A stretch of DNA of 54,606 nt, from IMG/VR virus record IMGVR_UViG_3300030107_003944, positions 1 to 54,606 of that record. One strand, written 5' to 3'. Shown here piece after piece: positions 14,101 to 29,672 of the stretch. The notes beneath the pieces were generated by a model, which saw nothing but the letters and a program-made list of their open reading frames with translations, made no database searches and was not told the origin of the DNA. Origin of the DNA: a virus (taxonomy: Duplodnaviria > Caudoviricetes). A program made the translations under genes and the position numbers. The stretch's first letter is position 1, and every line of letters starts with the position of its first letter.

Positions 14101-17100
14101 CTCTCGGATGTTCGAACATTCCTTCGAGAGGCCAAAGGAAGGGAACTCTATACTGAGAGTGTCGCAGTGGGACGCCTGGTCTATGACGCTTGGGATGATC
14201 TCCAACTGTTTCAGAAAGGAAAGTCCAACCTCAATCGAGGATTCGTCAACACCCTCATCCCCTGGGGCAACTGGAGAAGAGGATTCCGAAACGCAATGTC
14301 GATGGCAAAGCGGAGAGGAGCGAGCTTTGACAATGTCCAAGAGAGAATCGGTAGATACACCAAAGAGGTAGAAGATGCTTTCGTGTCTACGGAGCGCCTC
14401 CTTTCTCGGGGCAGAATGGAACTCATTGAGATCTCTCGAATGGAGGCGCTGGGAGGCACGCCTGCTGAACGGTTCGAAGTCTGGTTGGACAGCTTTGCCG
14501 AGGTCAATCTAAAAGAAGGAAAGCCTCGGTGGAATCTGGCTACTGGGAACGGAAGCCCCTATCAAAAGGGTGCCCAGCAGATGGCTGCCGACTATCGAAC
14601 AGACCCCCGAAGGCTTGAAGATGCTCGGGCGGCGGGTGAAACAAAAGCGATTCAACTGAGGGCCAAGTTGCGCCGACTCATTGAGACTGCTCGGAAGGGG
14701 AGAGGAAAGATCGTAGGAAAGGGAGAAGAAATCACTCTTTCCCCCAAGTTCTTAGATGAGCTTGAGCGTGGCATTGATCAAATTACGGGGGATCTCGTTT
14801 CCCGAGTCACAGAGAGCGCACAATACGGAAAACCATCTCGAACTCTCCAGGCTGTCTCGCGTATGTGGCTTGCTCGGGGTAAGGGACGTCCCATAGCTGT
14901 GACAGAGGATGATGCCATTCTCTTAGCTCTTGCAAGACACTTTCTCGGGAACTCAAACACTTTCGGAAAAGAAGTCAATGCTCTCGGGGAAGTAATAGAT
15001 GAAGGCTTCTCCGCGAAGATGCGAAATCTCACTTTCGCTTTGAGGAGAGAGGTGGACACGAATGTGGATCGAGTAAACGCTCTCGCTTCTTCTGCATTCA
15101 TGGCTTCCGCTTCGATTGGCACCCTGGGCTATAGGCTCCAAAGAGCATCAGGAATCTCAATCAAGGCGAGCGTGGCAGCAGACATCAACCGTATTTTCGA
15201 AGGAAATATGGCAGAGGTGAAGAACCCAGAAGCTGCTTATGATGCCCTCAATCGGATGGGGATGCCCTTCAGTCAAGACAAATGGACAAGCAGTGGGAGA
15301 CAGATAGCGGGGTTCGTCAAAGACGTCTCGGGAGAGCATCGTCGCCTGATCCAGATGGGAACAACGAAGGGAGGAAGCTCGATTGTTCCCCAAAACATGG
15401 TTGAAGCCTTAGAAGCCCGGGCTGAAGACCTCGTCAAAGAGCTTCGAGTTGCCAGTATTCGAGGTGTGGAACCCTTAGCGGCAAGAATGTACGGAGACTA
15501 CCTTGCTGCTTGGCGGGGATCCGCAGTAACTGGATTGATTATTCCCAACCCTCGCTATTGGACCAACAACATTATGGGAGACTTCTCTCAGATGTGGATG
15601 GAAGCGGGCCTGTGGCAAGCATCAAAGCGAAGTTTCTACAACCTCCCTACCAATCTTCCTTTCTTTGGAAGAAGATGGCAGGAAATGAACCTGTACATGG
15701 CAGAACAGGTAGCAGGCAAGTCTGGAAGAGGAGAAGCCCTCCCGGGCATCCTCTCCTCTGCCTTGAACCCTTTTTTGGGAAGAGTGTTCAAAGGAGAAAA
15801 AGGCCACTTCTTCACTAAGAATGGGGAGCCCATTACTTTCGATCAGTTGAGAAGATGGGCCTTAGAAGACGGTATTTCAGAGTCCTTCGTTCGAGAAGAA
15901 CTGATGCAAATGTATGGCCGAACGGCTGACGACTTCAAGAGAATGGGAAGGGAGATGTATGACTGGTGGCAAGGTCAGATTTATGACCATGCCGCCCTCG
16001 TTCAAGAGCGTCAACGAATGGGGTTCTACGCTGACCTCCTCCAGAGAGGATACTCCCGAAAAGAAGCAGCAGAGAGAACGAAGCGGGCTCTCTATGACTG
16101 GTCGCATGGAATCGCAGAGTGGGAAGGGAGGACTCTCTCTCGAATCATTCCTTTCTGGAGATTCTGGCGTCTTGGAATGAAGCAGTTGCACTACTCTTTC
16201 CTCGAACCTTTTGTCTCTCCTTCAGGAGCCTACCTCAAGAAGGCGGCCCTCGGGAATACGAAGTTGGCTCGGATGAGACAGCAGCTTCTTATTTGGCCGT
16301 CTCTTCCTGAGTTCATCTACGAAAATAATGCTCATGCAGGAATGTCTCTTCAAGAGCAGACAGACATGCTCGCCCATCAGATGGGGAAACCCGGGTACTA
16401 CCAGACTCGACCATCCCCTGGAGCGATTCCTTATGACCCGGTTCGACGGGAAGCTTACCTTCGGCGAACAGGGAAGGACATGACACACCGGCAGATTATC
16501 ATGCCGCCTGCAACTGTTCCGGACCTCTTCGATATGGGCACTGGACTTTGGACGGGACTCTTTCTTACCTTGAATAAGTTTAGTCGGGTAAAAGGAATTT
16601 TTCCGGGAGCAGACTCGGATCCAATCTTTGATATTCCAATGCGAGGAGATGTTGGAGCACAGTTCTTTGAGCCCATTCTGGGCGGTCTTGCCCCTGGGTG
16701 GGAAACTATGGCAAGGTCGGTTGCCTCTACATGGGGAGCAGACTTAGATTTTGAGATGAGGTCTTCAGATCGATACTTGAGTCCAGATGAAGAAATGATC
16801 TGGAAGAAGTTCGCCCCTCTACGAGCCCAAATGAAATGGGACAACGACTCAGGAAGGTATAAAGTATCTACCCACATTCACTGGTTGTGGAGATCCGCTC
16901 CGGTCACGGCGACTCAGGTGACGAGTTGGATGGGAGGGATTGCCACTCACAACGAGTACCGAGACCGCTCTCTCTTAGAAACCTGGGCACGAGTTTTCGG
17001 TCGGGTGACGGGAGTCTATCGAGAAGTTCCAATCAATATCTATGAGACTCTGGAGCAACGCCAGCGTGGATTGAAAGAAGAGTTTGACAAGTTTATTCGA

Positions 17101-17238
17101 AGCCATGGTGAATACCTGGGGAATCCATATGAAGGTCCTCGTGATCCGAAGTACATTCCTGCGAATCTACGTCGTCAACAAGAAGAAATCCAAGAAGGTT
17201 TAGACGAGATGGGAAGCGAGAGTCCTCTGGATTACTAA
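11125..17238 (+). CDS. Large internal virion / DNA ejection protein
   Basis: 2037 aa, charged and helical. C-terminal pattern (PRYWTNNIMGD; AAERTKRALYDW...SRIIPFWRF) resembles large podophage ejection proteins. Confidence 0.65.
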   Translation: MALEDQTPTGQDPEQDTPENEEIIQFPLGGIAATLLGTTPSATRSNLALNPPPSEDPKDLQEQAEYGVAVDSLDPQDTSTPPSPTTFDLESGGDREVEKATSPDIYLASSSPPVGWTPSRVEIDRLLEEKLLSPYEAKDPQKVWDAGRASQTRRGGTDWVGKKAGQYLRHRAVSGESFIQNLIHQQVEIGSITKQVREKTAIDPDAAWDLVWKVHTNKLQDEDLNQGKTRSKEDFNREVERRTQRSLSEFAASRSNILWIHPDTNELIDDIQDDWLPIKMIRVLANSIPLSRVGPGDIPDSADARVRAHAFTSGPQVKVEGLAYRIARASPSTWLAPKWFGGHAIGSREWTESILAGDDITQHIDEMGEALGRYIPGERFDRAAGVIATLGIIAFEPDLGSFLLTGPGYAAKGLRLAKTNRKLLKAAQFLDEMSTVNATGAKSLDQISDELEAFDEAIFRAIEMEAASNYRTVGGLEGATLGSTGAASNVYKKLGEMNVLKRERIAEARKLEAQAVTEEGKAALALKKQQIAEIDLAQAYILREHAETLKNNFLVMQGMSPEKAAAIVKKKDAPVVGTAARDTDKLASDLEKKAEEIRKDPIVQQKLKEYDEAATDLASLFDHMVQGFRLLPEARRVDGKLRRGWDILSTEGKRTAASVSSRAKPIRVPTIGSRIRVPTETGGTRIAEVERIRITGPGGKPRLARGNENEIIIELTDGSTFKHPFRLDKPTAKRLKTKIDRFDELHELVSAEGGIVSQMLKMREDAAAARRLAEQIRTAGPHAKRLQAFEEATERLREASKAYKEASKEAGVAARSRDKAVKKWVGQSEEAVRAEIHAVETARIREHFGEAIKTVRDGLENFRVAGLTRLKAHNIYSSPRKFARAALNLRKLDDEAIQSFGMKIDDEALFKEYQELRKKVTSGPVKHPTKEVGIEFDSASLLRELETLAGDRKAVSEFLASDRGKSLKWIFETGAKTPHGRLLLDTDTASKVLSDVRTFLREAKGRELYTESVAVGRLVYDAWDDLQLFQKGKSNLNRGFVNTLIPWGNWRRGFRNAMSMAKRRGASFDNVQERIGRYTKEVEDAFVSTERLLSRGRMELIEISRMEALGGTPAERFEVWLDSFAEVNLKEGKPRWNLATGNGSPYQKGAQQMAADYRTDPRRLEDARAAGETKAIQLRAKLRRLIETARKGRGKIVGKGEEITLSPKFLDELERGIDQITGDLVSRVTESAQYGKPSRTLQAVSRMWLARGKGRPIAVTEDDAILLALARHFLGNSNTFGKEVNALGEVIDEGFSAKMRNLTFALRREVDTNVDRVNALASSAFMASASIGTLGYRLQRASGISIKASVAADINRIFEGNMAEVKNPEAAYDALNRMGMPFSQDKWTSSGRQIAGFVKDVSGEHRRLIQMGTTKGGSSIVPQNMVEALEARAEDLVKELRVASIRGVEPLAARMYGDYLAAWRGSAVTGLIIPNPRYWTNNIMGDFSQMWMEAGLWQASKRSFYNLPTNLPFFGRRWQEMNLYMAEQVAGKSGRGEALPGILSSALNPFLGRVFKGEKGHFFTKNGEPITFDQLRRWALEDGISESFVREELMQMYGRTADDFKRMGREMYDWWQGQIYDHAALVQERQRMGFYADLLQRGYSRKEAAERTKRALYDWSHGIAEWEGRTLSRIIPFWRFWRLGMKQLHYSFLEPFVSPSGAYLKKAALGNTKLARMRQQLLIWPSLPEFIYENNAHAGMSLQEQTDMLAHQMGKPGYYQTRPSPGAIPYDPVRREAYLRRTGKDMTHRQIIMPPATVPDLFDMGTGLWTGLFLTLNKFSRVKGIFPGADSDPIFDIPMRGDVGAQFFEPILGGLAPGWETMARSVASTWGADLDFEMRSSDRYLSPDEEMIWKKFAPLRAQMKWDNDSGRYKVSTHIHWLWRSAPVTATQVTSWMGGIATHNEYRDRSLLETWARVFGRVTGVYREVPINIYETLEQRQRGLKEEFDKFIRSHGEYLGNPYEGPRDPKYIPANLRRQQEEIQEGLDEMGSESPLDY

Positions 17239-18271: not shown

Positions 18272-20161
18272 ATGTCAGTACAACCCGGGCAAGTAGAGAG
18301 GGAAAAACGAAGGCTCGAACGAAGACGTAGAAAAGCCAGAGCAAAGGCTAAACAAGAAGCCTTCCTGCGCTCTATGTCGGCAGATGACTGGCTCGATCTC
18401 GCCGCTCTGTATTCCTATTACGACCATACACACTATCGTGAAGGAGACACAGGAGATGTCCCCCGCTCCCCTCGGGCAAGAAGAAAGTGGCTGAATGACT
18501 GGCGTCCCTCCTTGAGTGAAGAGGAACAGAAAGAGGCTAAAGAAGTATTTGACGCTCTCTGGTCTGGAGGAGACCCTCCCCCGGGCACTCCTCGTAGCGT
18601 AGAAGATCTCTACAAGCTTCTATCGATACAAAAAGTCTTTCCTGATTTTTCCAAGATGACTCCAGAAGAAGCGCAGGCTGTGAGAAGAGGAGAAGATCCC
18701 TTCACTCAGTTTGATGAAGAGCGGGACTCGCCTCGGGAAAGGGAGGGAGTAGGTCCAGTTCGGGGGCGAATCTACGAGGATGTTGGAAGTCGAGGAGATC
18801 GACTCTCTGGCAGAGGAACCCGTCGAATGTTTCGCTATCATCCAGTCTTCTCTCCGGGGACTCAACCAGAAGGCATGTGGCTTTGGGGAAATCTACTCAA
18901 AGCCGGAGGAAAAAAAGTCTTCACTGAAGTCCTTGGTCCTGCTTTGGCAAAGAGACAAGATCAACAGCGAGAGATGGTTCAGGATCGTCTTGCAACACTT
19001 CGAGGACAGTATGAGCCCTCCTATTCAAGAGGGTGGTGGAATACGATGGAAGCCCTTCGCGAAGTTCCACCAGAAGATCTTCTAAAGACAGTCTTACGGG
19101 GAGATCTTCCTGGACAGGAGCCGAATCGACTGGGAGTTCAAGGAAGAGCCTATGCCCACTGGGCGTTGATCAACAAGATGAAGCCCGGATTTTTCGAGGT
19201 TCCCCAAGAGGGTCCACTCGGCATGTGGGCTCCTATCGGAGAGAGTACTGGGATAGGTCCAGAAGGACGGAACGTCCCCTGGTTTCCAGATAAACTCGAA
19301 AATGTAGCGCACTTCGTAGTGACGGGGGGACTCTCTGCCTTTCTTCCAGAAGCAGAGCCCCCCGCTTGGGAAAACCCAGGGTCTCAAATCCATCAGGCAC
19401 GAGAGGGGGATCTGATGAAAGAAGACAACTGGCATGTATGGAATATCCAAGAGAAGAATGCCGCCCTTCTTGGGCAATATGAGGCGATGGAGTTCATTCA
19501 CAGACAAATCATCGAAAACAAGGAAAGTCTGGATCAAGTCAACCAAAAGTTCGAGGCAGGAACGATCTCTGAGAGAGAAGCCACCCGAAGAACTTTAGGT
19601 CTGATGGGAGTAGAGATTACTCCATCTCTAAATGAAAGTTTGAACAAGCTTCCAGATGAGGTTCTTCCCCCAGAAGAGCCTCCAGACCCTGTTCCTCTTT
19701 CTCTCGCACAGCGAGATGCTTTGATCCGTGAGGGGAAAGAAATCCCTCCTCATTATCTCGTTAAAACGGAATGGGACGAGGAAGAGAAGAAAAAGTTTGA
19801 GGAGGAATGGGAGACTCCAACTCCTACAGGAAGTCTTCAAGAAATCTACGGATTAGATGACTCGGGATCTCCTACGGGGATGACTCCCGAGCAGGCATAT
19901 GAAGAACACTTTTGGCAAAAGCAGGATCTTCCTTCTGATCTGACTCAGACCGAGCCGTTCCCCGGCTGGAGTCCCCCCACTCCAGAACAGACATATCAAC
20001 AAGAAGTCCTGGACTGGCATCCTCCTAAGATCTTTCCTACGGATCCTTCTCCAGATCCGGCTCCTAAAACAAAGAGAGTCAAGAGGAGAACCTCATTCGC
20101 CAAAGACCCCCTCACAGGAGAGTATCTCAATCCTGAAGTGTGGATCGAGGTTCCGGAGTAG
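18272..20161 (+). CDS. Hypothetical protein (basic N-terminus, Pro/Glu-rich C-terminus)
   Basis: 629-aa ORF with genome-typical codon usage and no recognisable motif. Confidence 0.7.
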   Translation: MSVQPGQVEREKRRLERRRRKARAKAKQEAFLRSMSADDWLDLAALYSYYDHTHYREGDTGDVPRSPRARRKWLNDWRPSLSEEEQKEAKEVFDALWSGGDPPPGTPRSVEDLYKLLSIQKVFPDFSKMTPEEAQAVRRGEDPFTQFDEERDSPREREGVGPVRGRIYEDVGSRGDRLSGRGTRRMFRYHPVFSPGTQPEGMWLWGNLLKAGGKKVFTEVLGPALAKRQDQQREMVQDRLATLRGQYEPSYSRGWWNTMEALREVPPEDLLKTVLRGDLPGQEPNRLGVQGRAYAHWALINKMKPGFFEVPQEGPLGMWAPIGESTGIGPEGRNVPWFPDKLENVAHFVVTGGLSAFLPEAEPPAWENPGSQIHQAREGDLMKEDNWHVWNIQEKNAALLGQYEAMEFIHRQIIENKESLDQVNQKFEAGTISEREATRRTLGLMGVEITPSLNESLNKLPDEVLPPEEPPDPVPLSLAQRDALIREGKEIPPHYLVKTEWDEEEKKKFEEEWETPTPTGSLQEIYGLDDSGSPTGMTPEQAYEEHFWQKQDLPSDLTQTEPFPGWSPPTPEQTYQQEVLDWHPPKIFPTDPSPDPAPKTKRVKRRTSFAKDPLTGEYLNPEVWIEVPE

Positions 20162-20163
20162 AA

Positions 20164-20508
20164 ATGGCAAGTAAGATTAGTTGTCCGAGCCACAATGGTT
20201 CGAAGAAGAGAGACTATGAGTGTGAAAAAAGACAACGCGCTGATGTCCCAAAGAAAGAGTTAGAAGAGAAGAAACGAAAACACGCTGATCGTTCTCGGGC
20301 TTACCGACGTCAGAATGGCAAAAAAGGAGATGGAAAAGATAATCATTCTCCTTCGGGCCACAGAAAGAACAATGGTAAAACAGTCTCAGTGAGCGAAAAA
20401 GACAATAAAAACTACTGGGATGAGAACCGTTCCGATAAGGAAGAAATCAAGAAAAAGATTTCAGCCTCCCTCCGGGCAAACAGAAAGAAGCAAACGAGGA
20501 AATCATAA
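20164..20508 (+). CDS. Small basic protein resembling a degenerate phage HNH protein
   Basis: RDYE...RSRAYRR..GKKGDGKDNH...KNNGKTVSVSEKDN resembles the RDY..E/GDGKDVDH small HNH family. Start moved to the ATG after GGAG. Confidence 0.5.
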   Translation: MASKISCPSHNGSKKRDYECEKRQRADVPKKELEEKKRKHADRSRAYRRQNGKKGDGKDNHSPSGHRKNNGKTVSVSEKDNKNYWDENRSDKEEIKKKISASLRANRKKQTRKS

Positions 20509-21482
20509 TGGCAAGAACATCACCCGCAGCGGCGGGAGGAAGAACAGTTCCAGCACCTGCTACTGGCGGTGGCGGTGGCGGTGGAGGGGGTAATCCCTGG
20601 GAAGACTGGGTTGAGTTCGATCTTTCTAAAATCGCAGATGAGAGCGAGTGGAAGAAAATCGAGGGCGCTGGCATCGGGGCGATCGACGTCACAGCAGCCA
20701 TGTCAGGTGACCAACTTCACGTCACCTTTCCCGACATCGGCAGCGGGTACAACGCACGGAACATCACCACCACACAGCACGGGTTGTGGTTCATTAAAAA
20801 AATAAAGCTCGATCCCTGGGCGAATCAAGCGACTCCTGCGGGCCAAGCGGCGCACAACTTTCAAAGTGAGAGCACGCTCCTGAAACTTGAGATGCAGTTC
20901 GATCACACGAATGGGCCTATCAATGGAACATCCGATCAAGGTTATGGCCATCAGGTACATGCTGCTTGTGGGATTATTGCCTATGCATCTGACCAGGGCA
21001 CAGATCCACCTCTCCCTGGCACCACAAACTATGCCGGAGTGTGTGTAACAAAGAATCGGTCCAACGATCCTAACAACTTCAGCAATGCTACTCAGAAGCT
21101 CAGCATGTACAAGTCCGGCCTTTTCAGCCGTCATGGAAAAGGTCTGGGAGAGGGGAGAATCTGGCGAAACCAACCGGGTAGTGACACAACTTCCCACGAT
21201 GCGATTGTATTTCAAGCTGGTGTTTCTACAAACTTAGTTGCACATCCTATTGGCTCCTACAACGAGCAAATGCCCTCTGGCTCTTATGCTACTACCGATC
21301 CTTTTGGACCAATGGTTGCGGCTACCCAGACAACAAACAACGCTACTCGTTTTGGCGGGAAGCATTTATATCTGGCGTGCTGGTTCGGTTTCGACGTTAA
21401 CGGAAAGAAGGGTGGTGTTATCCGTATCACAAAGTTCCGCTACCTACTACAACCCCTTTCCGCACGCGCCGCACTGGAGTAA
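20508..21482 (+). CDS. Putative virion / receptor-binding protein
   Basis: 324 aa. Short N-terminal anchor, poly-Gly linker, then a beta-rich globular domain. TAATG coupling to the previous gene. Confidence 0.5.
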   Translation: MARTSPAAAGGRTVPAPATGGGGGGGGGNPWEDWVEFDLSKIADESEWKKIEGAGIGAIDVTAAMSGDQLHVTFPDIGSGYNARNITTTQHGLWFIKKIKLDPWANQATPAGQAAHNFQSESTLLKLEMQFDHTNGPINGTSDQGYGHQVHAACGIIAYASDQGTDPPLPGTTNYAGVCVTKNRSNDPNNFSNATQKLSMYKSGLFSRHGKGLGEGRIWRNQPGSDTTSHDAIVFQAGVSTNLVAHPIGSYNEQMPSGSYATTDPFGPMVAATQTTNNATRFGGKHLYLACWFGFDVNGKKGGVIRITKFRYLLQPLSARAALE

Positions 21483-21484
21483 TC

Positions 21485-21772
21485 ATGGCTGCTATCTGCC
21501 TGTTTGAGACGAAAAGTACGAGTGCAGCCGACGATATAGTTGCTGCTGTAGATACTGGAGAACTGTGGGGCGTAGACATGGGCACCACCTCCGGGAGTTC
21601 TTCTTATTCTAAGTACGCTTTAGTTGAGTGTACTGCGAACAGAGCCATTCAAATCACTGGTGTGATTCCCGAAGACGTCTCGCTTAGCGTTATTGATGAC
21701 GACGTGGCCAGCTTCACAAATGCTACAGCAAACGAAAAAGTGTGGTATTTACGCGGTAAGATTGGGGGCTAA
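21485..21772 (+). CDS. Hypothetical protein
   Basis: 95 aa, SD GGAG. Confidence 0.65.
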   Translation: MAAICLFETKSTSAADDIVAAVDTGELWGVDMGTTSGSSSYSKYALVECTANRAIQITGVIPEDVSLSVIDDDVASFTNATANEKVWYLRGKIGG

Positions 21773-21775
21773 TGA

Positions 21776-21967
21776 ATGGAACAGCGAGTTCGAAAGCTTG
21801 AAACTGATGTAGCTGTACTGGGCCAGAGACAGGACACGGTAGAGTCAGAAGTGTCTTCCATTCGGGCAGATATTCAGGGGATCAAGAAAGAGATCCACAA
21901 AGCCCAAGGTTTGATTCTGGCCACTGTGGTTATCATGCAGTGTATTGCAATCTTCATGGAGGGGTAA
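21776..21967 (+). CDS. Coiled-coil protein with C-terminal TM (XhlA-like lysis accessory)
   Basis: Heptad coiled coil followed by hydrophobic LILATVVIMQCIAIFM. Confidence 0.55.
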   Translation: MEQRVRKLETDVAVLGQRQDTVESEVSSIRADIQGIKKEIHKAQGLILATVVIMQCIAIFMEG

Positions 21968-22126
21968 ATGGAAGGCGAGGTATTAGCGCAGTACCTTGAC
22001 CTGGGCATGACTGCCGTTTTTATCGGCTATCTCATCAACCAGAATAGACGGATGGGCAGACAACTCACGAAGATGACCCGAAAGTATGAGGAACTCTTTG
22101 AGCGCGTACTGAAAGCAGTTGAATAG
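21968..22126 (+). CDS. BhlA/UviB-like holin, 52 aa (not in the ORF track)
   Basis: My translation: MEGEVLAQYLDLGMTAVFIGYLINQNRRMGRQLTKMTRKYEELFERVLKAVE. One short hydrophobic segment, then a charged helix with KYEEL. SD GGAGG. Abuts the previous stop. Confidence 0.55.
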   Translation: MEGEVLAQYLDLGMTAVFIGYLINQNRRMGRQLTKMTRKYEELFERVLKAVE

Positions 22127-22166
22127 ATAATCGCGTCCCAACTATAGCGATTTCCAAGGAACAGGC

Positions 22167-22352
22167 ATGAAAAACTTGAAGTGGCAGGAAGATGTGCCCT
22201 TTATTGATTGGCTCATCTCCAAGAACTATGCAGAAATAAAGGATGGAAAAGTCCAACCTCATACATCGTTAGGTCTTGTGTTGTATATGCATGAGGCTTA
22301 TCGAGCAGGGCTTAACCAAAGAGGAGGGCCTCGTGGCACACTTCTCTCTTGA
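22167..22352 (+). CDS. Hypothetical protein
   Basis: 61 aa filling the gap before the DUF2589-like pair. Confidence 0.55.
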   Translation: MKNLKWQEDVPFIDWLISKNYAEIKDGKVQPHTSLGLVLYMHEAYRAGLNQRGGPRGTLLS

Positions 22353-22821
22353 TGAGTTTGTTGGAGCAATCCAAGAAGCCGTCGTCAAATCAACAGACAT
22401 TGCTGAACAGCATGAACTGAACCACATTCGGCAAGAAGAATACTGGATTGATACCGGAGAGAAAGACAAAGATGGGCAACCTATCTTCCGTCCTCGAATG
22501 GTGACAGTTCGTTTGCCCGTTTGGGACGAGGGCAAACAAGTCCAGAAGGACATCCAGGTTCCGATGCAAACACTCGTCACCGGACAATCTCTCGCCATCG
22601 AAGAGCTAACCGTTCAGATGGATGTCGAACTTCAAGGCATGGAGGATGGAGCAGATCTCGGGTGTACGCATAGAAAGCTGAAGATAAATCCTTCAATAGG
22701 TGGAAATGGGTGGTTCGCCAAAAAGAGAAATACTGCTAAGATCTCAATAACTTTCAAGGGGCAGGACCCTCCAGAAGGTTATGCAAGGATTGATAACCAA
22801 CTAATCAAACTACTTCCGTAG
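22333..22821 (+). CDS. DUF2589-like protein (short paralog)
   Basis: GTG start after GAGGAGG. Motifs SLDEFVGAIQEAVV, IQVPMQTLV...SLAIEELTVQMDVEL and AKISITFKGQDPPEGYARI. Confidence 0.75.
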   Translation: MAHFSLDEFVGAIQEAVVKSTDIAEQHELNHIRQEEYWIDTGEKDKDGQPIFRPRMVTVRLPVWDEGKQVQKDIQVPMQTLVTGQSLAIEELTVQMDVELQGMEDGADLGCTHRKLKINPSIGGNGWFAKKRNTAKISITFKGQDPPEGYARIDNQLIKLLP

Positions 22822-22830
22822 GAGAGAACA

Positions 22831-23490
22831 ATGCCAGATGGCCTCGTGAAAATGTCAGATCAGTTTGGTGGATTGCCAATGGACCAGCTCATTGGTGGTC
22901 CGCTGGCGGCTGCTTGTAACTCCCAGATTCAACTCGCTAAAGCAACGGCTGACTTTATCCAGAATGTTGGCTTAGTGACTGATGCTAATGGTGTGATGAA
23001 AGCTCGGACTGTTGACTTTACCTACACGAAGCCCGTAAATGATGGAAACGGTGGGTACACAGAAGTTACCAACCAACTCGATGTTCCTATCCTGGCGATT
23101 CTGAATACTCCCTCGCTTCAAGTGAAGGAGGTTGAAGTAGACTTCACGATGGAAGTGAAATCCAGCACATCAGAGAAGTCCAGCCGAGACTACGAAGCTA
23201 CTCTCGATACCGAGATCAAAGCAGGATGGGGTCCAGTAAGCGTTGACGTGAAGATTCACGGATCGGTTTCCGCTAAAAGCGAGAATGCTCGCTCTTCTGA
23301 CAACTCAGCTAAGTACAACGTAAAGGTCATTGCCCGCGATGATGGAATGCCCGAAGGGTTGAAGCGTTGCCTGGACATCGTTCAACAAGCCATTGCAGAA
23401 AAACCCCAAGCCGGTCCTCCTGTGAATCAGCCTGTGAATCAGCCTGCGAACCCTCCGGCAAATCCAACCAATCCTCCAGGTAACGGGTGA
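22831..23490 (+). CDS. DUF2589-like protein (long paralog)
   Basis: FGGLPMDQLIGGPLAAAC.SQ..LA.AT.DFI..VG; LDVPILAIL..PSL.V.EV.VDF.MEV; SDNSAKYNVKV.A....MPEGL.R.LDI. Confidence 0.85.
   Translation: MPDGLVKMSDQFGGLPMDQLIGGPLAAACNSQIQLAKATADFIQNVGLVTDANGVMKARTVDFTYTKPVNDGNGGYTEVTNQLDVPILAILNTPSLQVKEVEVDFTMEVKSSTSEKSSRDYEATLDTEIKAGWGPVSVDVKIHGSVSAKSENARSSDNSAKYNVKVIARDDGMPEGLKRCLDIVQQAIAEKPQAGPPVNQPVNQPANPPANPTNPPGNG
23419..23451 (+). repeat. 12-bp tandem repeat (CCTGTGAATCAG) x2 plus a partial unit, encoding the PVNQ/PAN tail
   Basis: Seen directly in the sequence. Confidence 0.8.
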
Positions 23491-23496
23491 TAAGTC

Positions 23497-23724
23497 ATGA
23501 AGAATAGAGGAAAAATCCTACAACAAGCAATCATCATGGCAGAAGATCTCTTCCCCGGGCCAAAGAAGGGGAAAGAGAAGCGAGCCTGGGTTATCAAGTT
23601 CATCAACGAACACGTCAATTTCCCAATCCTCAATGAGAGGCAAGAGGCAAAGATCATTGGATTCGCTGTTGATGTTTTATGCGACCTCATGTTCCAAAAA
23701 GTCCAGGAGATCAAACAACAATGA
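23497..23724 (+). CDS. Small lysis-region protein (resembles the soluble part of LL-H-type holins)
   Basis: AIIMAEDLFPG..KGKEKR.WV motif. ATGA-coupled to the endolysin. Confidence 0.5.
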   Translation: MKNRGKILQQAIIMAEDLFPGPKKGKEKRAWVIKFINEHVNFPILNERQEAKIIGFAVDVLCDLMFQKVQEIKQQ

Positions 23725-24314
23725 TTCCTGCACTACTCCAACACGTCCAATCCCTGGGCCACAAGGTTTTCGATGGTGGCCATGCCTACAATCTGAACAT
23801 CATTGGCATCCGAAACAAGGAACAGGGAAACTCTTTCAACGATTTTCTTTGTTGCGTCTACCGAGAAGAAGAAAACGGTCCTTGGATCGTGAAGTATTGG
23901 GAAGCGACGACTGATCCGGGCAAGTTCTGTCTTGAGAACCCGGAAGTCTATGGAACATCAGCCGGGACGGCAATCATTGTCCCTGGGCAGTACCGAGGAG
24001 CCTACAAGTTAGACCTCCATCGAGGAAAATACGAAGCTTTGTGTCAGCGGAATGGAAAGATAAAAGTCTACCGAGACGGCAATAGAGACGACATCGTGGA
24101 TATGGACCCTGATACGATTCAGGAAGGATATTTCGGATGCAACATCCATAAAGCTGGCACAAACTCTACCAGAGTAGATAAATGGTCCGCAGGGTGCCAG
24201 GTTTTTGCCCGGAGTAAGGATTTTGAGGAGTTAATTTCCTTGTGCCATAAGCAAATCGAACATCACCCCAACTGGGCAAAGACTTTCACATACACCCTCA
24301 TCACGGAGTGGTAA
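23721..24314 (+). CDS. Endolysin with a YkuD/L,D-transpeptidase-like His/Cys catalytic domain
   Basis: LNIIGIR, ATTDPG, PGQY, VYRD.N.D, GCNIH...WSAGCQV, FTYTL. Start taken at the ATGA overlap. Confidence 0.75.
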   Translation: MIPALLQHVQSLGHKVFDGGHAYNLNIIGIRNKEQGNSFNDFLCCVYREEENGPWIVKYWEATTDPGKFCLENPEVYGTSAGTAIIVPGQYRGAYKLDLHRGKYEALCQRNGKIKVYRDGNRDDIVDMDPDTIQEGYFGCNIHKAGTNSTRVDKWSAGCQVFARSKDFEELISLCHKQIEHHPNWAKTFTYTLITEW

Positions 24315-24316
24315 AA

Positions 24317-24520
24317 ATGGAAAAACTCAAAGAACTTTGGAAGAAACTCAACCCCCGAGTAGCGATTGTCGGAGGAGTAGTCGTAGTTTCTACTACGCTC
24401 GGAACCTGCCATCTCTTAGGTGAAGAAGAGGCTCCCAAAACAGAAGAAGCCGCCCCGGAGGAAGCTCCAGCAGAAGAAAAACCCGCTGAAGCTCCCCAAC
24501 CAGAGGCGACTGAAGAGTAG
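24317..24520 (+). CDS. Small membrane-anchored protein with Glu/Ala/Pro tail
   Basis: Basic N-terminus, hydrophobic VAIVGGVVVVSTTLG, Cys, then an acidic disordered tail. Lies next to the endolysin. Confidence 0.6.
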   Translation: MEKLKELWKKLNPRVAIVGGVVVVSTTLGTCHLLGEEEAPKTEEAAPEEAPAEEKPAEAPQPEATEE

Positions 24521-24524
24521 AAGG

Positions 24525-24613
24525 GCGATGGGGGAGACCTTGGCGTTGGGCCCAGGAGAGTTGGACGTGCCTGTTCTTTCTGTCCTACTCCTCTCCCCCA
24601 TCGCTTATTTTTT
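24525..24613 (+). terminator. Structured RNA / terminator-like element at the end of the lysis region
   Basis: Perfect 13-bp stem GCGATGGGGGAGA (24525-24537) / TCTCCCCCATCGC (24592-24604) enclosing 54 nt, followed by TTATTTTTT. Confidence 0.55.
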
Positions 24614-24625
24614 AGGAGAAAAGAA

Positions 24626-24742
24626 ATGCCCTTCAAGAAGGTAGGTAAGGACAAGTGGAAATCCCCTTCAGGGAAGAAGATGTCCGGGAAACAAGTTCGG
24701 GCTTACTACGCCAAGGTCAATGGATCTAAGAAGAAGAAGTGA
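24626..24742 (+). CDS. 38-aa basic protein (not in the ORF track)
   Basis: MPFKKVGKDKWKSPSGKKMSGKQVRAYYAKVNGSKKKK. SD AGGAG. Resembles a small phage family I recall with an MPFKKVG..K..SPSG motif. Overlaps the convergent gene end. Confidence 0.65.
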   Translation: MPFKKVGKDKWKSPSGKKMSGKQVRAYYAKVNGSKKKK

Positions 24743-26060
24743 TTTCCAGAGGCTCTCCGACTGTCCGAGAGATCTGAACGTACTTCCAGTTTGCTTTCTT
24801 CTTCCCCTTTGGGCGAATGGTCGTCATTAAGATGACCTGGGGCTTGGCTTTCTCTAAGACTTTCATCGTCTTAGAAAGAGTATCCGCATCCCACATGCGA
24901 TCATCTACGACAATCAAGTCATTCTCATCTCCCAGGGCAGAAGCGATAGCTGCGAGAACTCGCGCCTCAGTACTCCCGGAAAGCGCCACATCCACTGGAC
25001 CACCTTCTCCTCGCCAGAGACCAATCTCAAATGTGGGAGAAGTGGGGTCGAAGTGTAGCTTTTCTGGTTTGGGAAGGAATGAAGATACGAGTTCAATGAA
25101 CTCATCTGATGCCCTATCAAGCATGTCAAACATTACTCGGAGGATCTCTCCCTTCAGTTTCTTCAAAGAATCCTGAAGACTCTTTGCTCTGACCTCACCA
25201 TTCCGGGCTGCGGAAGCGGCACGGGAAAGTCTCTTCGAGAGTAGGACTTCAGACATTTCTCCCTGAACTTCCTCTGTCGGAGGGATTCGCTTGATGGCCT
25301 CCTCTCCTCCTAAGTAGTCAATGAGATGCCGAAGAACATGCTTTGCTTGGAGAGTTGGATCCGAGCGATAATCGATGTAGATCATCTGAACTAAGTCTCG
25401 AAGGTGGGCTCGTGACAGCCCCTTTCCAATCCCTTTGACTTCTTCATCAGAAACACTCTTGAAAGAGCCGAGGGATTCCAGAGCAATCTGTCCTGCCTTC
25501 ACCACTGAGGATTGGTTTCTTTGTATCTTGCCCAGCCGTGTGAGAACTTCTACCAAACTCACAGAGCCTTCCATTCCTGGAAGGACTAAGATGAGAGCCT
25601 CTTGAAGATCAGATGGGATCTCAGAGAGTAGGTCTCCTACTGGAACAGACTCACAGAGCTTCTCCCAGAAGAACTTAGCTTTCGTCTCTGGGTTTCCTGC
25701 CATCACAGCATGGAGTTCTGCGACGGAAAGAGCCGCTCCTTCTGGTCCTTCTCTCTTGGGGCGTTTCCCCTTTTCCAACTCCCAAAAGCAAGTCTCTCCA
25801 TCACTCAACTCTGCATCAACACTACAAGAACTACTTCCGTGAGGAATCAAAGAAGAGAGGAGAGATCCATCTTTGATGGGTTTATCTCTATAGAGGAGAC
25901 CGAATGCACTCCCCACTCGGGCAAGTTGAATCGACTCGGCGATGGCACTCTTGCCTGCTTCATTGTCCCCAATAAGAACAGTGTTCTTTCCAAGGTCTAC
26001 GTTGTAGGGCAAACTGTCGGGGCTTTTCACGGTAGACGTGATTCGTACTACATGACTCAT
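24726..26060 (-). CDS. SbcC/Rad50-like ABC-type ATPase
   Basis: Walker A GDNEAGKS near the N-terminus, helical middle, signature-like LSGST, Walker B LIVVDD. Start placed at the ATGA overlap (MSHVV). Confidence 0.7.
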   Translation of the reverse strand: MSHVVRITSTVKSPDSLPYNVDLGKNTVLIGDNEAGKSAIAESIQLARVGSAFGLLYRDKPIKDGSLLSSLIPHGSSSCSVDAELSDGETCFWELEKGKRPKREGPEGAALSVAELHAVMAGNPETKAKFFWEKLCESVPVGDLLSEIPSDLQEALILVLPGMEGSVSLVEVLTRLGKIQRNQSSVVKAGQIALESLGSFKSVSDEEVKGIGKGLSRAHLRDLVQMIYIDYRSDPTLQAKHVLRHLIDYLGGEEAIKRIPPTEEVQGEMSEVLLSKRLSRAASAARNGEVRAKSLQDSLKKLKGEILRVMFDMLDRASDEFIELVSSFLPKPEKLHFDPTSPTFEIGLWRGEGGPVDVALSGSTEARVLAAIASALGDENDLIVVDDRMWDADTLSKTMKVLEKAKPQVILMTTIRPKGKKKANWKYVQISRTVGEPLEITSSS

Positions 26061-26842: not shown

Positions 26843-29356
26843 TCAAACCTCACTCCAGCGATTACCGATGTCTGCTCCAGCGGTGTAATCAAGAAGAGGA
26901 TTCACTTTCCTACGTCGGTTCATGGCGTGTTCCAGAACTTCCGCAGCAAACTCAGCTTCTCCTTCGGGCACCTCTAAATAGAGAGCATCATGGCCATGAT
27001 TGATGAGCCACTCCACAGGAAGAGTTTCTCTTGGGGGATTGATCGCTTCTGTCGCAAACCAATCTTGGACCCCATAAATAAGTTCGAGCATCGCTTCATT
27101 CACAATCACCACACCTCCCGACTGGATGGGGTGATTCACAAGCTCATTGATCTTGTCTTCATTTCTAAAGTAGCGGCGACGGTCCCATAGAGAGTCGCCG
27201 ATAAACCCTTCTTTCCGATAGCGAGTTTCAATCATTCGCCACCAACGGGGGATCTCAGGGTCTGCTCTTTTCAGTCCTTCGACGACTTGACGGACGTCCT
27301 CAACCGTAAGGTGAGCGTAGAGGAGGTTTCCGTCGTCATCTTCGACCGAGACGATTTGCTCGTGGATACGTTTAGTAGAGGCGGCATACTGCCAAGCGTA
27401 CCGAGTGTTCTTTGTGATGTCTCGGGTTGCTTTGAAGGTCGCCTTGCCTTTCTCCTTACGATCACTGGGAGCCCCTTCGAGGTTCCAGATTCCTTTGCCA
27501 TATACGATCTCCATTGTTTCATTGTGTGGGTCGAGTCCCTCTCGAATAACTCGAAGGGAGTGTTTTGCTTGTGCCTCTTCTGCGATCAGCCGAAGCTCAA
27601 GTTGATCCATGTCTGCTCCGATGAGAACACACCCCTCCCGGGCAACAAAGATGTCCCGAAGAGAGTAGGGAATGTTCTGGGCATTTGGATTACTTGAGGA
27701 ATATCGGCCAGTTGCGGGGAGTCTGTTGTAGCTGGGATGAATCCGAGTGATCTGCTTTTCAATCAAAGGTCGGATGTAGGTGCCCAGGAGTTTCGTAACT
27801 TTTCGATAGGTTCGAACAGACTGGAGAAACTCTACTCTATCTTTGGACAAGCCATAGTGAACGATCATAGTTCGAAGTGTTTCGTCATCAGTAGAGGGAT
27901 CTCCTGTTTTCTCCGAGTAGTGATGAGGAGCGAGTCCCCATTTAGAGAAAAGAAGGTTTGCCATCTGTCTGGTGCTCTGAGGATTGAAGCCTTCTCCTAC
28001 GATGTCCTGACATCGACGAAGGTGGAGTTTTGATTCCGTATCCAACCTGAGCATGTGTTCAGTGGCTTTCCCTAAATCTACTCCCATCCCAACTCTTTCC
28101 ATCGTAGCGCCCAGGGATTGGAGCATGTGTTCCCGAGGAAGAAGATGCTGCTGTCTTCTCTTCTTCACATCCCGGGCAAGAGGGTTCGCGATTCGAGCCG
28201 TGACACAAACATCTTTTCCACAGTAGATATGAAGTTCTTCATCCGTCTTTGCCTGGACTGCTGTGTGGTCAGCCTTCCAAGCTTCCGGGTTGTCTGTATA
28301 AAATGAACCGACAAAGCCCAGGTTGTGAGGAAGTTCATTGTCCGCGAGGAGATGAAGTAAGATCGTGTCACAAGTAAGCTTTGGAGTGACCCCGAGCCAA
28401 GACTCTACGCAGAGGCGGTCGTACTGGCCTGCATTGTGTCCCAGAAGGAACACTCCAGGAAACTGAAAGAAGATTCTTAAGGCGTTTTCCAGCTCTCGAA
28501 TGATCTCCAAATCGGCTAAATATTCTCCATTGATTCCTCTAATCGCTACAACGAGAGCCTCCTTCTCTGTGCCGAGTCCTACACAACGAATGTTCGCTGT
28601 CATCGGATCAATCCCATCAGTTTCTAAATCGTAGGCGACGAAGTCTTTCTGGGTTCTCCAGCGTCTAAGAAACTCTTGGAGGACCTTGGGGTCTGTGGTT
28701 CTCGTAATCTCAGGCTCGGGCCAGTCTAAGGTCCCAGAAAAGAATCGAAACGCTTTTCTCAAGTCGTGCCGGAAGACTTCCCGGTAGGCTTGCTGGCGAA
28801 GAACCCAAGCGGGGTGCATGGTATACCCGACCTCCAAAGTCACTTCAGGATCCCAAGGGGCTGGCACGAGTTCGCATCCCCCTCGGATGTTCATGATTGA
28901 AACATCTCCCCCCCGGATTGCTTTCGCTGCTGTCTTTCCCAGACAGATGATTCGTTTGATTCCGGTAGCTTTCAGTTCTTCATAGAGAAGAGTCTTACAG
29001 GTATCGAAAGGACGTTGGAGGAGAACAGCCTCACTCTCACTCTCCCGGGCCTTCTTCACTCGCCTCTTGTTGATTCGAGAAACCTGAATGTTCACTGCCT
29101 CCAAATCATTCTTTGGAGGGCGACACCTAACAGTGTTTGCGATGTAACATCTGTCCCGAGGGATATTCAAAGCATTGAGAGCAGACTGGAGTTCCATTCC
29201 ACTCGGTCCAACGAAGGGTCTCCCCTCTACAGTCTCATGCATTCCTGGCGCTTCTCCGAGAATGATCACACGATCATCATCATGAGTTTCAGAGAGCACC
29301 GGGGCAGCGGCCCCGCCCTGACAGAGGGCGCAGTTTTTACAGATTGGATAAAACAT
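26843..29356 (-). CDS. polA: Family A DNA polymerase with N-terminal family-4 uracil-DNA glycosylase-like domain and 3'-5' exonuclease
   Basis: UDG: CKNCALC, GEAPG, GRPFVGPSG, RCRPP, HPA. Exo: YDLET, GHNAGQYD, YCGKD. Pol: TGRYSSSNPNAQNIP, ADMDQLELR, R..TK...Y...Y, HD. Confidence 0.92.
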   Translation of the reverse strand: MFYPICKNCALCQGGAAAPVLSETHDDDRVIILGEAPGMHETVEGRPFVGPSGMELQSALNALNIPRDRCYIANTVRCRPPKNDLEAVNIQVSRINKRRVKKARESESEAVLLQRPFDTCKTLLYEELKATGIKRIICLGKTAAKAIRGGDVSIMNIRGGCELVPAPWDPEVTLEVGYTMHPAWVLRQQAYREVFRHDLRKAFRFFSGTLDWPEPEITRTTDPKVLQEFLRRWRTQKDFVAYDLETDGIDPMTANIRCVGLGTEKEALVVAIRGINGEYLADLEIIRELENALRIFFQFPGVFLLGHNAGQYDRLCVESWLGVTPKLTCDTILLHLLADNELPHNLGFVGSFYTDNPEAWKADHTAVQAKTDEELHIYCGKDVCVTARIANPLARDVKKRRQQHLLPREHMLQSLGATMERVGMGVDLGKATEHMLRLDTESKLHLRRCQDIVGEGFNPQSTRQMANLLFSKWGLAPHHYSEKTGDPSTDDETLRTMIVHYGLSKDRVEFLQSVRTYRKVTKLLGTYIRPLIEKQITRIHPSYNRLPATGRYSSSNPNAQNIPYSLRDIFVAREGCVLIGADMDQLELRLIAEEAQAKHSLRVIREGLDPHNETMEIVYGKGIWNLEGAPSDRKEKGKATFKATRDITKNTRYAWQYAASTKRIHEQIVSVEDDDGNLLYAHLTVEDVRQVVEGLKRADPEIPRWWRMIETRYRKEGFIGDSLWDRRRYFRNEDKINELVNHPIQSGGVVIVNEAMLELIYGVQDWFATEAINPPRETLPVEWLINHGHDALYLEVPEGEAEFAAEVLEHAMNRRRKVNPLLDYTAGADIGNRWSEV

Positions 29357-29516: not shown

Positions 29517-29523
29517 ATAAGAA

Positions 29524-29596
29524 CTGGGGCAGCGGGACTTGAACCTGCAACTTCCTGATTAACAGTCAGGCGTTCTGCCAATTGAACTACACCCCA
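29524..29596 (-). tRNA. trnN: tRNA-Asn (GTT)
   Basis: Cloverleaf TGGGGTG-TA-GTTC-AATTGGCA-GAAC-G-CCTGA-CTGTTAA-TCAGG-AAGTT-GCAGG-TTCAAGT-CCCGC-TGCCCCA-G. No encoded CCA. Confidence 0.9.
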
Positions 29597-29672
29597 AAGA
29601 GTTGAGACATCTGTTTGACCACGGACATGCCTCCCTGCTCCGCCGATTTACCCCAAAAGGGTCAGGTCTAAG

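Follow-up and report, generated by a model that had tools for sequence, protein, structure and literature searches.

What a tandem pair of DUF2589 genes contributes to a phage that carries it next to its candidate endolysin is the question raised by the genome of an uncultured marine phage, complete at 54.6 kb and analysed here over its entire length (the window, 54,606 nucleotides). The genes for terminase, portal, major head and internal virion proteins occupy 47828-51852 and 54-20161; the DUF2589 pair comes after these structural genes on the same strand. From the gene at 22167 to position 24520, consecutive genes overlap or are separated by gaps of at most 9 nt (Table 1); the 3' end of the gene at 22167 extends 20 nt into the short DUF2589 gene, and the gene at 23497, with its stop, reaches 4 nt into the lysin gene. 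For 21776-24520, 20 sequencing runs were listed, none of them as holding RNA, which has no bearing on expression either way. An earlier, sequence-only reading had placed the pair in a lysis-type block, in agreement with the tight packing of this late block together with the sole candidate endolysin; its overall interpretation, a two-component pore or filament that breaks the outer membrane or a toxin released at lysis, is partly supported.

Table 1. Positions of the DUF2589 pair and of the neighbouring late genes in the window.
Feature	Position	Strand	Characteristics
Candidate holin-type membrane protein	21776..21967	+	63 aa; N-terminal coiled coil, C-terminal hydrophobic segment
52-aa protein	21968..22126	+	Weak N-terminal hydrophobic segment (KD19 maximum 1.57), charged C-terminus
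61-aa soluble protein	22167..22352	+	KD19 maximum 0.21
Short DUF2589 paralog, putative hairpin-less partner subunit	22333..22821	+	162 aa; PF11655
Long DUF2589 paralog	22831..23490	+	219 aa; PF11655; amphipathic hairpin, Pro/Asn-rich disordered tail
Hairpin region of the long paralog	23191..23271	+	Codons 121-147; GWGP tip
75-aa soluble basic protein between pair and lysin	23497..23724	+	KD19 1.27, no hydrophobic segment
Candidate endolysin, signal-less	23721..24314	+	197 aa; PHROG matches
67-aa protein, last gene of the late block	24317..24520	+	Hydrophobic N-terminus ending LGTC, acidic Ala/Pro/Glu tail

The proposed assignment of both genes to DUF2589 is borne out by Pfam PF11655, which matched the short paralog with 66.2 bits (E 5.6e-18) and the long paralog with 146.6 bits (E 9.8e-43) against a gathering cut-off of 23 bits; nearly all of the 154 model positions are spanned by both proteins, the membership was confirmed at the DNA level as well, and DUF2589 was the only Pfam family found for either at E up to 0.1. 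The short paralog starts with GTG; many of its homologs are exactly 162 aa long and cover 100% of the query, which rules out an upstream TTG start (181 aa). An AGGAG-type purine-rich stretch lies 5-6 nt 5' of the start of each paralog, consistent with the separate Shine-Dalgarno sites noted previously. A BLASTP comparison of the short with the long paralog returned nothing significant (best E 0.18); hhalign aligned them over 110 columns with 96.6% probability (E 5.5e-10), bringing into register two of the elements that had been recognised by eye as common to both, a VP-hydrophobic strand and a C-terminal PEG motif. Judged by these profiles, the two DUF2589 genes are true but very distant paralogs. 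Homologs numbered 119 for the short paralog and 674 for the long one, the latter with 1728 cluster representatives (E limit 0.001), and conservation across hundreds of contigs rules out a chance pair of open reading frames. Beyond DUF2589, PHROG searches assigned neither paralog to any family, holins and spanins included, PDB sequence searches with both paralogs gave nothing meaningful, and an ESM Atlas search without PF11655 scored no higher than 0.78, which is short of a meaningful level. Among deposited phages, a DNA-level search with positions 20000-26000 gave no match; in 50,697 deposited phage records, tblastn with the long paralog retrieved one unannotated 4-kb fragment, and two distant long paralogs retrieved none. 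With a single fragment in 50,697 records, the family is nearly absent from deposited phage genomes and has therefore escaped the model systems of lysis research.

Among 79 related viral loci, both paralogs are present in all but one, L068, which is cut by the contig end; the ORF caller recognised both in 75, and tblastn added the second copy in L011, L031 and L063, giving 78. Among bacterial loci, 40 of 56 carry at least two DUF2589 copies (2-4); the bacterial copies, 2-3 in tandem and diverged, precede a variable gene of ~200 aa. The two-paralog unit proposed earlier is thus a fixed pair. Carriers of DUF2589 include monoderm bacteria (Ruminiclostridium, Bacillota, Oscillibacter), the cassette also occurs in gut Bacteroidales, spirochaetes and Clostridia, and a run of DUF2589-related genes (AF0414-AF0417) is reported for Archaeoglobus. 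The source phage shares with these bacterial and archaeal cassettes the tandem, diverged copies, both above the gathering score; it differs in that its pair is phage-borne, abuts the phage's own lysin and runs from short to long, the order in other loci being long to short. It also differs from distant viral DUF2589 loci in lacking a 67-aa zinc-ribbon partner, which is encoded on either side of the pair in 45 of 45 distant viral loci and in none of the 34 loci of the source-phage family. As to the R-body (Reb) linkage raised in the sequence-only reading, RebB was found in none of five DUF2589-bearing bacterial genomes; since 14 control genomes were likewise silent, this count speaks neither for nor against the linkage.

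The two paralogs are distinguished by a Ser/Thr-rich alternating segment with a GWGP turn, which the sequence-only reading had attributed to the long paralog only, and this distinction has held up. In 76 aligned homologs, the mean hydropathy of residues 121-147 of the long paralog alternates strictly, with column-wise means of about +1.2 to +3.8 versus -1.4 to -2.6; the hairpin has two arms of ~10 residues, a GWGP tip and Ser/Thr-rich flanks, whereas the insert of the short paralog at this site, between the core strands, is shorter, basic and non-alternating. Arms of this length suffice to cross a bilayer, as is established for beta-barrel strands. The hairpin had also been expected to appear in structure models; contrary to this expectation, the AF2 monomer of the long paralog (mean pLDDT 75.5) leaves the hairpin region, residues 114-153, at pLDDT below 50. 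The anticipated fold likeness to beta-pore-forming toxins (beta-PFTs) or tube proteins did not materialise in Foldseek searches with the long-paralog model, which yielded no PDB match at E up to 0.001 (best E 0.54) and only two unnamed homologs in BFVD. A complex prediction for the long (residues 1-195) and short paralogs with their own alignments scored 0.06 against a mark of 0.32, a value that speaks neither for nor against binding. Both paralogs lack hydrophobic segments (KD19 maxima 0.73 for the short and 0.86 for the long), and so both should start out in the cytoplasm.

Proteins built from such hairpins could also belong to the particle, as a small tube, plug or scaffold encoded by the last genes of the structural module. 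The position of the pair after the structural genes on the same strand would fit a virion or assembly role, as would seven T4-like loci, where the module lies directly after the major capsid gene (gp23) and before a tail-fibre-assembly-like gene, and the small beta-rich proteins that flank or interrupt the block in related loci. Yet this role is very improbable: in bacterial chromosomes of several phyla, 2-3 tandem copies lie beside nucleases or amidases with no phage structural genes called, neither protein has a PHROG family, and fold similarity to tail-tube, collar and capsid proteins stays at chance level (best E at or above 0.3).

The lysin candidate itself matches phrog_3000 at 3.6e-35 and the endolysin family phrog_33083 at 2.6e-11. 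Its homologs (no names and no Pfam families among the 120 listed of 3099) share an invariant H143, S156, G158 and C159, an arrangement that we take to resemble the YkuD motif; Pfam YkuD did not match the protein even at E up to 10, and it has no sequence relative in the PDB. The AF2 model is of high quality (pLDDT 93.8), with Ldtfm (6fj1) as the best PDB fold match at an E of only 0.11 and a TM of 0.29; as far as the model indicates, the lysin may be a peptidase of the Cys/His kind that folds like an L,D-transpeptidase. Searches for eight common lysin families across the complete genome gave no match. As the sole candidate endolysin of a complete genome, this protein is a core lysis gene product and not an accessory effector.

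Linkage of the pair to lysis genes, another claim of the earlier reading, is firm within the phage family and recurs at a distance, but is not universal. In the source-phage family, 30 of 34 loci have a lysin homolog no further than about 1.1 kb from the pair, and in six of 45 distant loci such a homolog is found on the opposite side of the pair, where a strong endolysin match (phrog_7, 1.1e-50) is adjacent and accompanied by a weak holin match. The pair directly adjoins a GH19 endolysin (phrog_181, 2.8e-71) in L054, an Amidase_3 protein (3.9e-25) in L100, Endonuclease_NS and patatin in L047, and an EEP nuclease in seven Bacteroidales-type loci; the adjoining enzymes of these four lineages are all leaderless, and a weak GIY-YIG match occurs among the enzymes next to the pair as well. 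The module thus recurs beside swappable enzymes. In several other lineages it sits beside capsid or DNA-metabolism genes, and it is for this reason that the lysis linkage does not extend to all carriers: besides the T4-like loci, in the closest outgroup (L034/L035, 56% identity) genes for an SbcD-like phosphoesterase and for a PD-(D/E)XK exonuclease enclose the module, and in L051/L052 it is flanked by ligase-like and Nudix genes. At least 14 types of neighbourhood can be distinguished; the annotation covered 2-5 neighbours of each, but no neighbours of L081, L027/L028 and L032. A recognised wall hydrolase is adjacent in four of these 14 types, two of which represent one phage family; this adjacency is suggestive and does not differ significantly from a rough null of our own estimation.

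Such variety would be expected if the pair and its swappable enzyme formed a mobile accessory element (a 'moron') that has nothing to do with the release of progeny and acts in defence, counter-defence, superinfection exclusion or as a toxin, the end of the late operon being just a permissive insertion site. The number of neighbourhoods, the two gene orders, the zinc-ribbon partner on either side of the pair and its loss in the source-phage family all agree with this explanation, as do the early or middle DNA-metabolism contexts and the adjacent enzymes (Endonuclease_NS, patatin, EEP nuclease, weak GIY-YIG, amidase), which are typical of conflict-system effectors. Against it, PADLOC-DB 2.0 matched none of ten proteins (both paralogs, the lysin, a bacterial homolog and partners), the pair stays beside the lysin almost throughout the source-phage family, and that lysin belongs to the core lysis genes of the phage. 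Even as effectors, wall hydrolases would have to cross the membrane somehow; the moron explanation, in our view rather unlikely, therefore overlaps with the one that we prefer.

Whether the lysin could instead be served by conventional partners depends on the small proteins around it. Of the flanking genes previously described as holin-like, the one at 21776 retains this status (KD19 maximum 2.13 at residue 43; a weak hemolysin PHROG match at 3.8e-4; and an XhlA match in Pfam that, with E 0.0037 and 17.8 bits, falls below the cut-off of 34.7), whereas the calls for 21968, without a family in Pfam and PHROG searches, and for 23497, with a weak holin PHROG match (E 0.025), are weak. The protein at 24317, also without a family in Pfam or PHROG, has a KD19 maximum of 1.81 and fails a strict lipobox pattern. 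The small membrane proteins 21776, 21968 and 24317 are potential holins, and all three genes are kept in related loci, 24317 downstream of the lysin; homologs of 22167, upstream of the pair, and of 23497 are limited to part of the phage family. The DUF2589 proteins themselves are not holins, since neither has a transmembrane helix, and not spanins, since neither has a lipobox or an N-terminal anchor with a coiled coil. No canonical spanin had been visible at first inspection, and none was detected by PHROG (no match in the block better than E 0.084) or by a window-wide lipobox scan, whose one hit lies antisense inside a 2037-aa gene, with no plausible coding position.

The absence of a detectable spanin and the presence of potential holins invite the version favoured by the sequence-only reading, in which both proteins reach the periplasm after holin triggering and replace spanins by perforating or destabilising the outer membrane. 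The 'disruptin' of phage phiKT, a cytoplasmic membrane-active protein that reportedly permits lysis in the absence of spanins, would be a precedent, and several distant groups of phages also have small membrane ORFs near the module. This version is weakened, and made quite unlikely, by the monoderm bacteria (Bacillota, Ruminiclostridium) and the archaeon that carry the family without possessing an outer membrane. By a crude hydropathy test, 54 of 79 viral loci lack a small membrane ORF within three genes of the module, as do 44 of 53 bacterial loci, whose cassettes would thus have no holin-like neighbour to let the proteins out.

We tentatively favour the explanation, at a probability of roughly 0.38, that the pair is a membrane-perforating module made in the cytoplasm that eases the passage of leaderless enzymes across the envelope. 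The two proteins would represent the subunits of a conserved, mobile DUF2589 module, a hairpin subunit and a hairpin-less partner, both produced in the cytoplasm without signal peptides and expressed from the end of the late operon jointly with the sole candidate endolysin, which has no export signal either. The hairpin subunits would assemble into oligomers, joined or regulated by the short paralog, and a lesion resembling a beta-barrel would arise where their hairpins enter a membrane. The most likely target would be the cytoplasmic membrane, attacked from inside; the occurrence of DUF2589 in monoderms and in Archaeoglobus fits this target. The lack of small membrane ORFs near most modules, as judged by the crude hydropathy test, also counts in favour of the explanation. 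Through the lesion, leaderless enzymes could reach the wall at lysis, alongside or in place of the nearby small membrane proteins. Two points temper this proposal: with three small membrane proteins as holin candidates, it is not evident why the phage would need another device to permeabilise membranes, and the adjacent nucleases could act in the cytoplasm without export.

Current explanations of phage lysis invoke holins, endolysins and spanins, plus a few special cases, and to our knowledge all known holins are helical membrane proteins. The block resembles holin-endolysin(-spanin) cassettes in its location at the end of the late operon, its tight packing, its signal-less lysin and its small membrane proteins; it departs from them in the DUF2589 proteins, which are neither holins nor spanins. 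Hairpins of the aerolysin/ETX-MTX2 type offer a second basis for comparison. With aerolysin/ETX-MTX2 and haemolysin beta-PFTs, the long paralog shares an alternating hairpin, Ser/Thr-rich flanks and an aromatic/Pro tip; DUF2589 proteins differ in being much smaller and in lacking a secretion signal, a Pfam match or a fold match to these toxins. A third comparison concerns Pepco (Trypco1/Trypco2), described in a preprint as beta-barrel pore toxins of protease-coupled defence systems, small and soluble, which pre-assemble and form a 9-10-mer beta-barrel, with a disordered Pro/charge-rich C-terminal tail (bioRxiv 10.1101/2025.11.14.688446). Pepco and DUF2589 proteins are alike in being small, soluble prokaryotic proteins without an enzymatic domain, and a disordered tail, rich in Pro, recurs in the long DUF2589 paralog together with a hairpin that is a candidate for barrel formation; the DUF2589 proteins are larger (162 and 219 aa versus 117 aa) and come as two paralogs. 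Pfam models of Trypco/Pepco gave no match at E up to 0.1, and no protease was found among the annotated neighbours; by analogy, Pepco would provide a functional precedent and not family membership.

A wider generalisation, which we regard as doubtful, is that DUF2589 pairs constitute a new class of lysis or release systems, in which a soluble two-subunit beta-barrel pore gates leaderless wall hydrolases, nucleases and lipases. Such a class would follow a gasdermin- or Pepco-like logic for crossing the cytoplasmic membrane, distinct from that of a helical holin, and would be a mobile module common to tailed phages, bacteria of several phyla and archaea. Literature searches found no publication on the function of DUF2589, only passing mentions in two papers, although supplements (of the Pepco preprint and of Pfam-wide surveys) could mention the family; its Pfam and InterPro accession numbers were not found in the literature either, and work on beta-barrel pores in phage lysis, covered by titles and the beginnings of abstracts, yielded nothing on DUF2589. 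The pair may therefore be an undescribed membrane-breaching device that recurs in many phages and bacteria. If the favoured explanation is true, a soluble two-subunit beta-hairpin device would represent a new mechanistic class for the passage of signal-less enzymes, would explain DUF2589 with its ~1,700 cluster representatives without assigned function, and would bear on holin-independent protein release and on self-lysis in gut Bacteroidales, spirochaetes and Clostridia.

The family also includes larger proteins: in ten longer homologs (302-409 aa), Pfam shows DUF2589 only and no fused enzyme, and the extensions appear by eye to be helical or of low complexity.

On profile evidence, both products of the gene pair are members of Pfam DUF2589, scoring far above the 23-bit cut-off of PF11655 (see table); an AGGAG-type stretch precedes each start, in agreement with the sequence-only reading, which had described two adjacent paralogs with their own ribosome-binding sites; both ORFs are real. 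An upstream TTG start for the short paralog (181 aa) was ruled out in favour of the GTG at 22333, since many homologs are exactly 162 aa long and span 100% of the query. BLASTP sees no relationship between short and long paralog (E 0.18); when the homologs of each are turned into a profile, the two profiles do align (96.6% probability, E 5.5e-10, 110 columns), and the "VP + hydrophobic" strand and C-terminal PEG helix previously noticed as shared features are matched with each other. The short-paralog family has a nearly invariant C-terminus and no tail; the C-terminal tail of the long paralog is variable and Pro-rich. A word-indexed search returned 674 homologs of the long and 119 of the short paralog, and an exhaustive search 1728 family representatives at E up to 0.001. 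Deposited phage genomes contain almost no member of the family: among 50,697 records, the long paralog of the window matches one unannotated 4-kb fragment, and two distant long paralogs match none. A PHROG search gave no family for either paralog. In the text portions available, the literature mentions DUF2589 by name only in passing (expression tables or text), and a literature search for the accessions PF11655 and IPR024510 found no mention.

The pair thus forms a genuine module, conserved but so far without explanation, for which the proposed pore function is plausible. An IMG/VR scan gave 166 matching stretches, 131 of them coding for a relative, and the best 80 of these 131 represent 79 loci. 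Exactly two DUF2589 genes occur in 75 of the 79 (ORF caller and HMM); in L011, L031 and L063 (at a cut end) the other copy is recovered by tblastn, and the contig of L068 stops before it. The short gene comes first in the phage family to which the window belongs (L003-L036, 56-96% identity), the long gene in 45 distant loci (33-38% identity). All 45 distant loci encode, at most 300 nt from the pair on either side, a 67-aa zinc-ribbon partner, matched only weakly by Pfam zinc-ribbon models; it contains two Cys-x2-Cys pairs as well as a helix at its C-terminus, and none of the 34 loci in the window's family has it.

The Ser/Thr-rich segment that had been singled out in the long paralog alone is indeed conserved there; the corresponding insert of the short family is shorter and basic and does not alternate. 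In a 76-homolog alignment, mean column hydropathy over long-paralog residues 121-147 alternates between approximately +1.2 to +3.8 and -1.4 to -2.6, with the tip consensus Gly-Trp-Gly-Pro; the flanking strands (100-114 and 155-169) likewise alternate, and therefore residues 96-169 could extend as one long hairpin within an oligomer. AF2 models the long paralog (mean pLDDT 75.5) as a sheet of long strands with a helix at either end of the chain, the N-terminal one (17-47) being confidently placed; hairpin residues 114-153 fall below pLDDT 50. The suggested kinship with beta-pore-forming toxins found no structural counterpart: in Foldseek searches the model lacked a PDB fold match and retrieved only two unnamed homologs from BFVD, and neither Pfam nor Foldseek detects membership in pore-forming-toxin families. 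By analogy, the module appears akin to lysis cassettes and beta-hairpin pore formers; the nearest functional analogy found in print is Pepco (117 aa, soluble), which assembles beforehand into beta-barrels of 9-10 subunits and acts as a pore toxin after cleavage of its Pro/charge-rich tail (bioRxiv 10.1101/2025.11.14.688446). The DUF2589 pair differs in having no sequence link to Pepco and no protease recognised among its annotated neighbours.

The window is a 100% complete virus record (CheckV, 54,606 bases) of a tailed phage, whose close DNA relatives are assemblies from marine and sponge metagenomes; a DNA-level search with positions 20000-26000 gave no match among deposited phage genomes. 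The pair lies at the far end of the long late block on the + strand, the coding strand switching past 24520, and the genes starting at 22167, 22333, 22831, 23497, 23721 and 24317 overlap or lie at most 9 nt apart. The lysin is the only endolysin candidate in the genome; genome-wide, YkuD, phrog_7, Phage_lysozyme, Amidase_2, SLT, GH19, Peptidase_M15_4 and Peptidase_M23 gave no match. It has 3099 homologs, with no names among the matches listed, and a hydropathy scan finds neither signal peptide nor hydrophobic segment. Because the best PDB match of its confidently predicted fold (pLDDT 93.8), the L,D-transpeptidase Ldtfm, is weak (E 0.11), and its invariant His143, Ser156, Gly158 and Cys159 presumably resemble a YkuD motif while the Pfam YkuD model stays silent, the lysin is treated as a candidate endolysin of uncertain chemistry. 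The "holin-like" label proposed for neighbouring genes fits 21776 (clear C-terminal hydrophobic segment, weak XhlA-like matches), fits 21968 less well (weak segment) and fails for 23497, which has no such segment; its basic, soluble product, encoded between pair and lysin, has a weak holin PHROG match (E 0.025) and, by eye, resembles the cytoplasmic part of LL-H-type holins. Holin identity was rejected for the DUF2589 proteins themselves, which have no transmembrane helix, as was spanin identity, there being no anchor and no lipobox.

Selected features of the window and of related loci
Feature	Position or loci	Strand	Details
Major head protein	54-1130	+	
Internal virion proteins		+	
2037-aa ORF	11125-17238	+	structural block
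324-aa protein	20508-21482	+	
Short DUF2589 paralog	22333-22821	+	162 aa, GTG start; PF11655 66.2 bits
Long DUF2589 paralog	22831-23490	+	219 aa; PF11655 146.6 bits
75-aa protein	23497-23724	+	
Lysin (candidate endolysin)	23721-24314	+	197 aa; phrog_3000 3.6e-35; C-terminal part of endolysin phrog_33083 2.6e-11
Small protein	24317-24520		N-terminal hydrophobic segment, acidic tail
Family-A DNA polymerase	26843-29356	-	
tRNA-Asn (GTT)	29523-29597	-	
Large terminase	47828-49531	+	
Portal	49999-51852	+	
Zinc-ribbon partner, examples	L056:5713-5916; L074:5717-5920		
Small beta-rich paralogs	L004:6640-7364; also L004:2634-2987, 4903-5289		first similar in L003-L033
Neighbourhood	L064-L072 (6 loci)		in order: strong endolysin (phrog_7, 1.1e-50), weak holin match (0.0029), lysin-type protein (42% identity to window lysin), zinc ribbon, pair
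Neighbourhood	L054, L055, L063 (3 loci)		GH19 endolysin directly downstream (phrog_181, 2.8e-71; annotated in L054 only)
Neighbourhood	L047-L050 (4 loci, ~270 kb contigs)		patatin-like phospholipase and Endonuclease_NS directly upstream, ~4334-5955
Neighbourhood	L074-L080 (7 loci)		between gp23-type major capsid gene (Pfam 3.3e-76) and phrog_1084 protein
Neighbourhood	L034/L035		between SbcD-like phosphoesterase and PD-(D/E)XK exonuclease
Neighbourhood	L051/L052		between ligase-like and Nudix genes
Neighbourhood	L056 group (11 loci), L038 group		unknown proteins only; these include small proteins with two or with several TM segments, and one protein with a signal peptide
Neighbourhood	groups of L037, L041, L081; L027/L028		no informative neighbour among those annotated

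In the window phage, the module is most likely embedded in a lysis block. The favoured reading (probability roughly 0.38) is that it would perforate the membrane and thereby help the leaderless lysin to reach the wall. The sequence-only reading had instead started from the missing canonical spanin, of which window searches likewise recognise none, and cast the pair as possibly breaking the outer membrane; this version ranks lower and is improbable, because the family occurs in monoderm bacteria and, as a published run of related genes (AF0414-AF0417), in Archaeoglobus fulgidus (PMC3949148). The earlier observations were confirmed, and their interpretation partly supported.

The linkage to lysis genes expected of related phages is found in the window's family, where 30 of 34 loci (exceptions L027, L028, L034 and L035) have a lysin homolog no more than ~1.1 kb downstream of the pair, and many members encode two small beta-rich proteins in between; L032 carries the homolog on the other strand. 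Elsewhere the module has capsid or DNA-metabolism neighbours, and it is chiefly these settings that speak against a role devoted to lysis. The distant neighbourhoods were grouped by eye, with two to five neighbours annotated in most groups. Over all neighbourhood types, a recognised wall hydrolase adjoins the module in only 4 of 14, which is suggestive, not significant, against a rough null of our own estimate. By a crude hydropathy test, only 25 of 79 viral and 9 of 53 bacterial loci encode a small membrane ORF on the same strand and no more than three genes away. A structural role is very unlikely, and it is doubtful that the pair represents a lysis or release protein of a really new class.

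With a Burkholderiaceae homolog as query, 56 loci were retrieved from bacteria, namely Bacteroidales, Treponema and other spirochaetes, Desulfovibrionaceae, Ruminiclostridium, Bacillota and Oscillibacter. Two to four tandem copies were called in 40, one in 13 and none in 3 by a crude ORF caller, some single-copy calls being merged or cut ORFs. The gene directly downstream varies: Pfam searches of ten representatives give an Exo_endo_phos nuclease in 7 loci, DUF261 in 8 Treponema loci, an Amidase_3 in 1 locus (by eye without a signal peptide), and sub-threshold GIY-YIG and Endonuclea_NS_2 matches; five of the ten have no Pfam family. The pair, from a family without characterised members, is most likely a mobile module of two subunits that repeatedly, not always, adjoins envelope- or nucleic-acid-acting enzymes without export signals; to judge from sequence, one subunit most likely carries hallmarks of a membrane-inserting beta-hairpin, and both are probably cytoplasmic. 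That it serves as a moron-type conflict cassette is rather unlikely; PADLOC models match neither paralog.

Eight Treponema loci (L091, L101, L109, L115, L120, L125-L127) have three DUF2589 copies in tandem and, after them, a DUF261 protein and a ~320-aa signal-peptide protein, and L047-L050 look like a degradative-enzyme cluster around a DUF2589 trio. In related phages, two families of beta-rich paralogs (~115-135 aa), absent there in the window, are duplicated around the pair; one matches only phrog_30535 (unknown function). The phrog_17 match of the window's DNA polymerase (3.2e-88) begins only at residue 113, the first ~110 residues being, by eye, presumably a family-4 uracil-DNA-glycosylase-type domain; the tRNA-Asn gene is the only tRNA gene of the genome. 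The 2037-aa ORF found no relative in a PDB sequence search. The 324-aa protein, immediately upstream of the small membrane proteins, has a nine-glycine run near its N-terminus and, without Pfam or PHROG family, is kept across the window's phage family.
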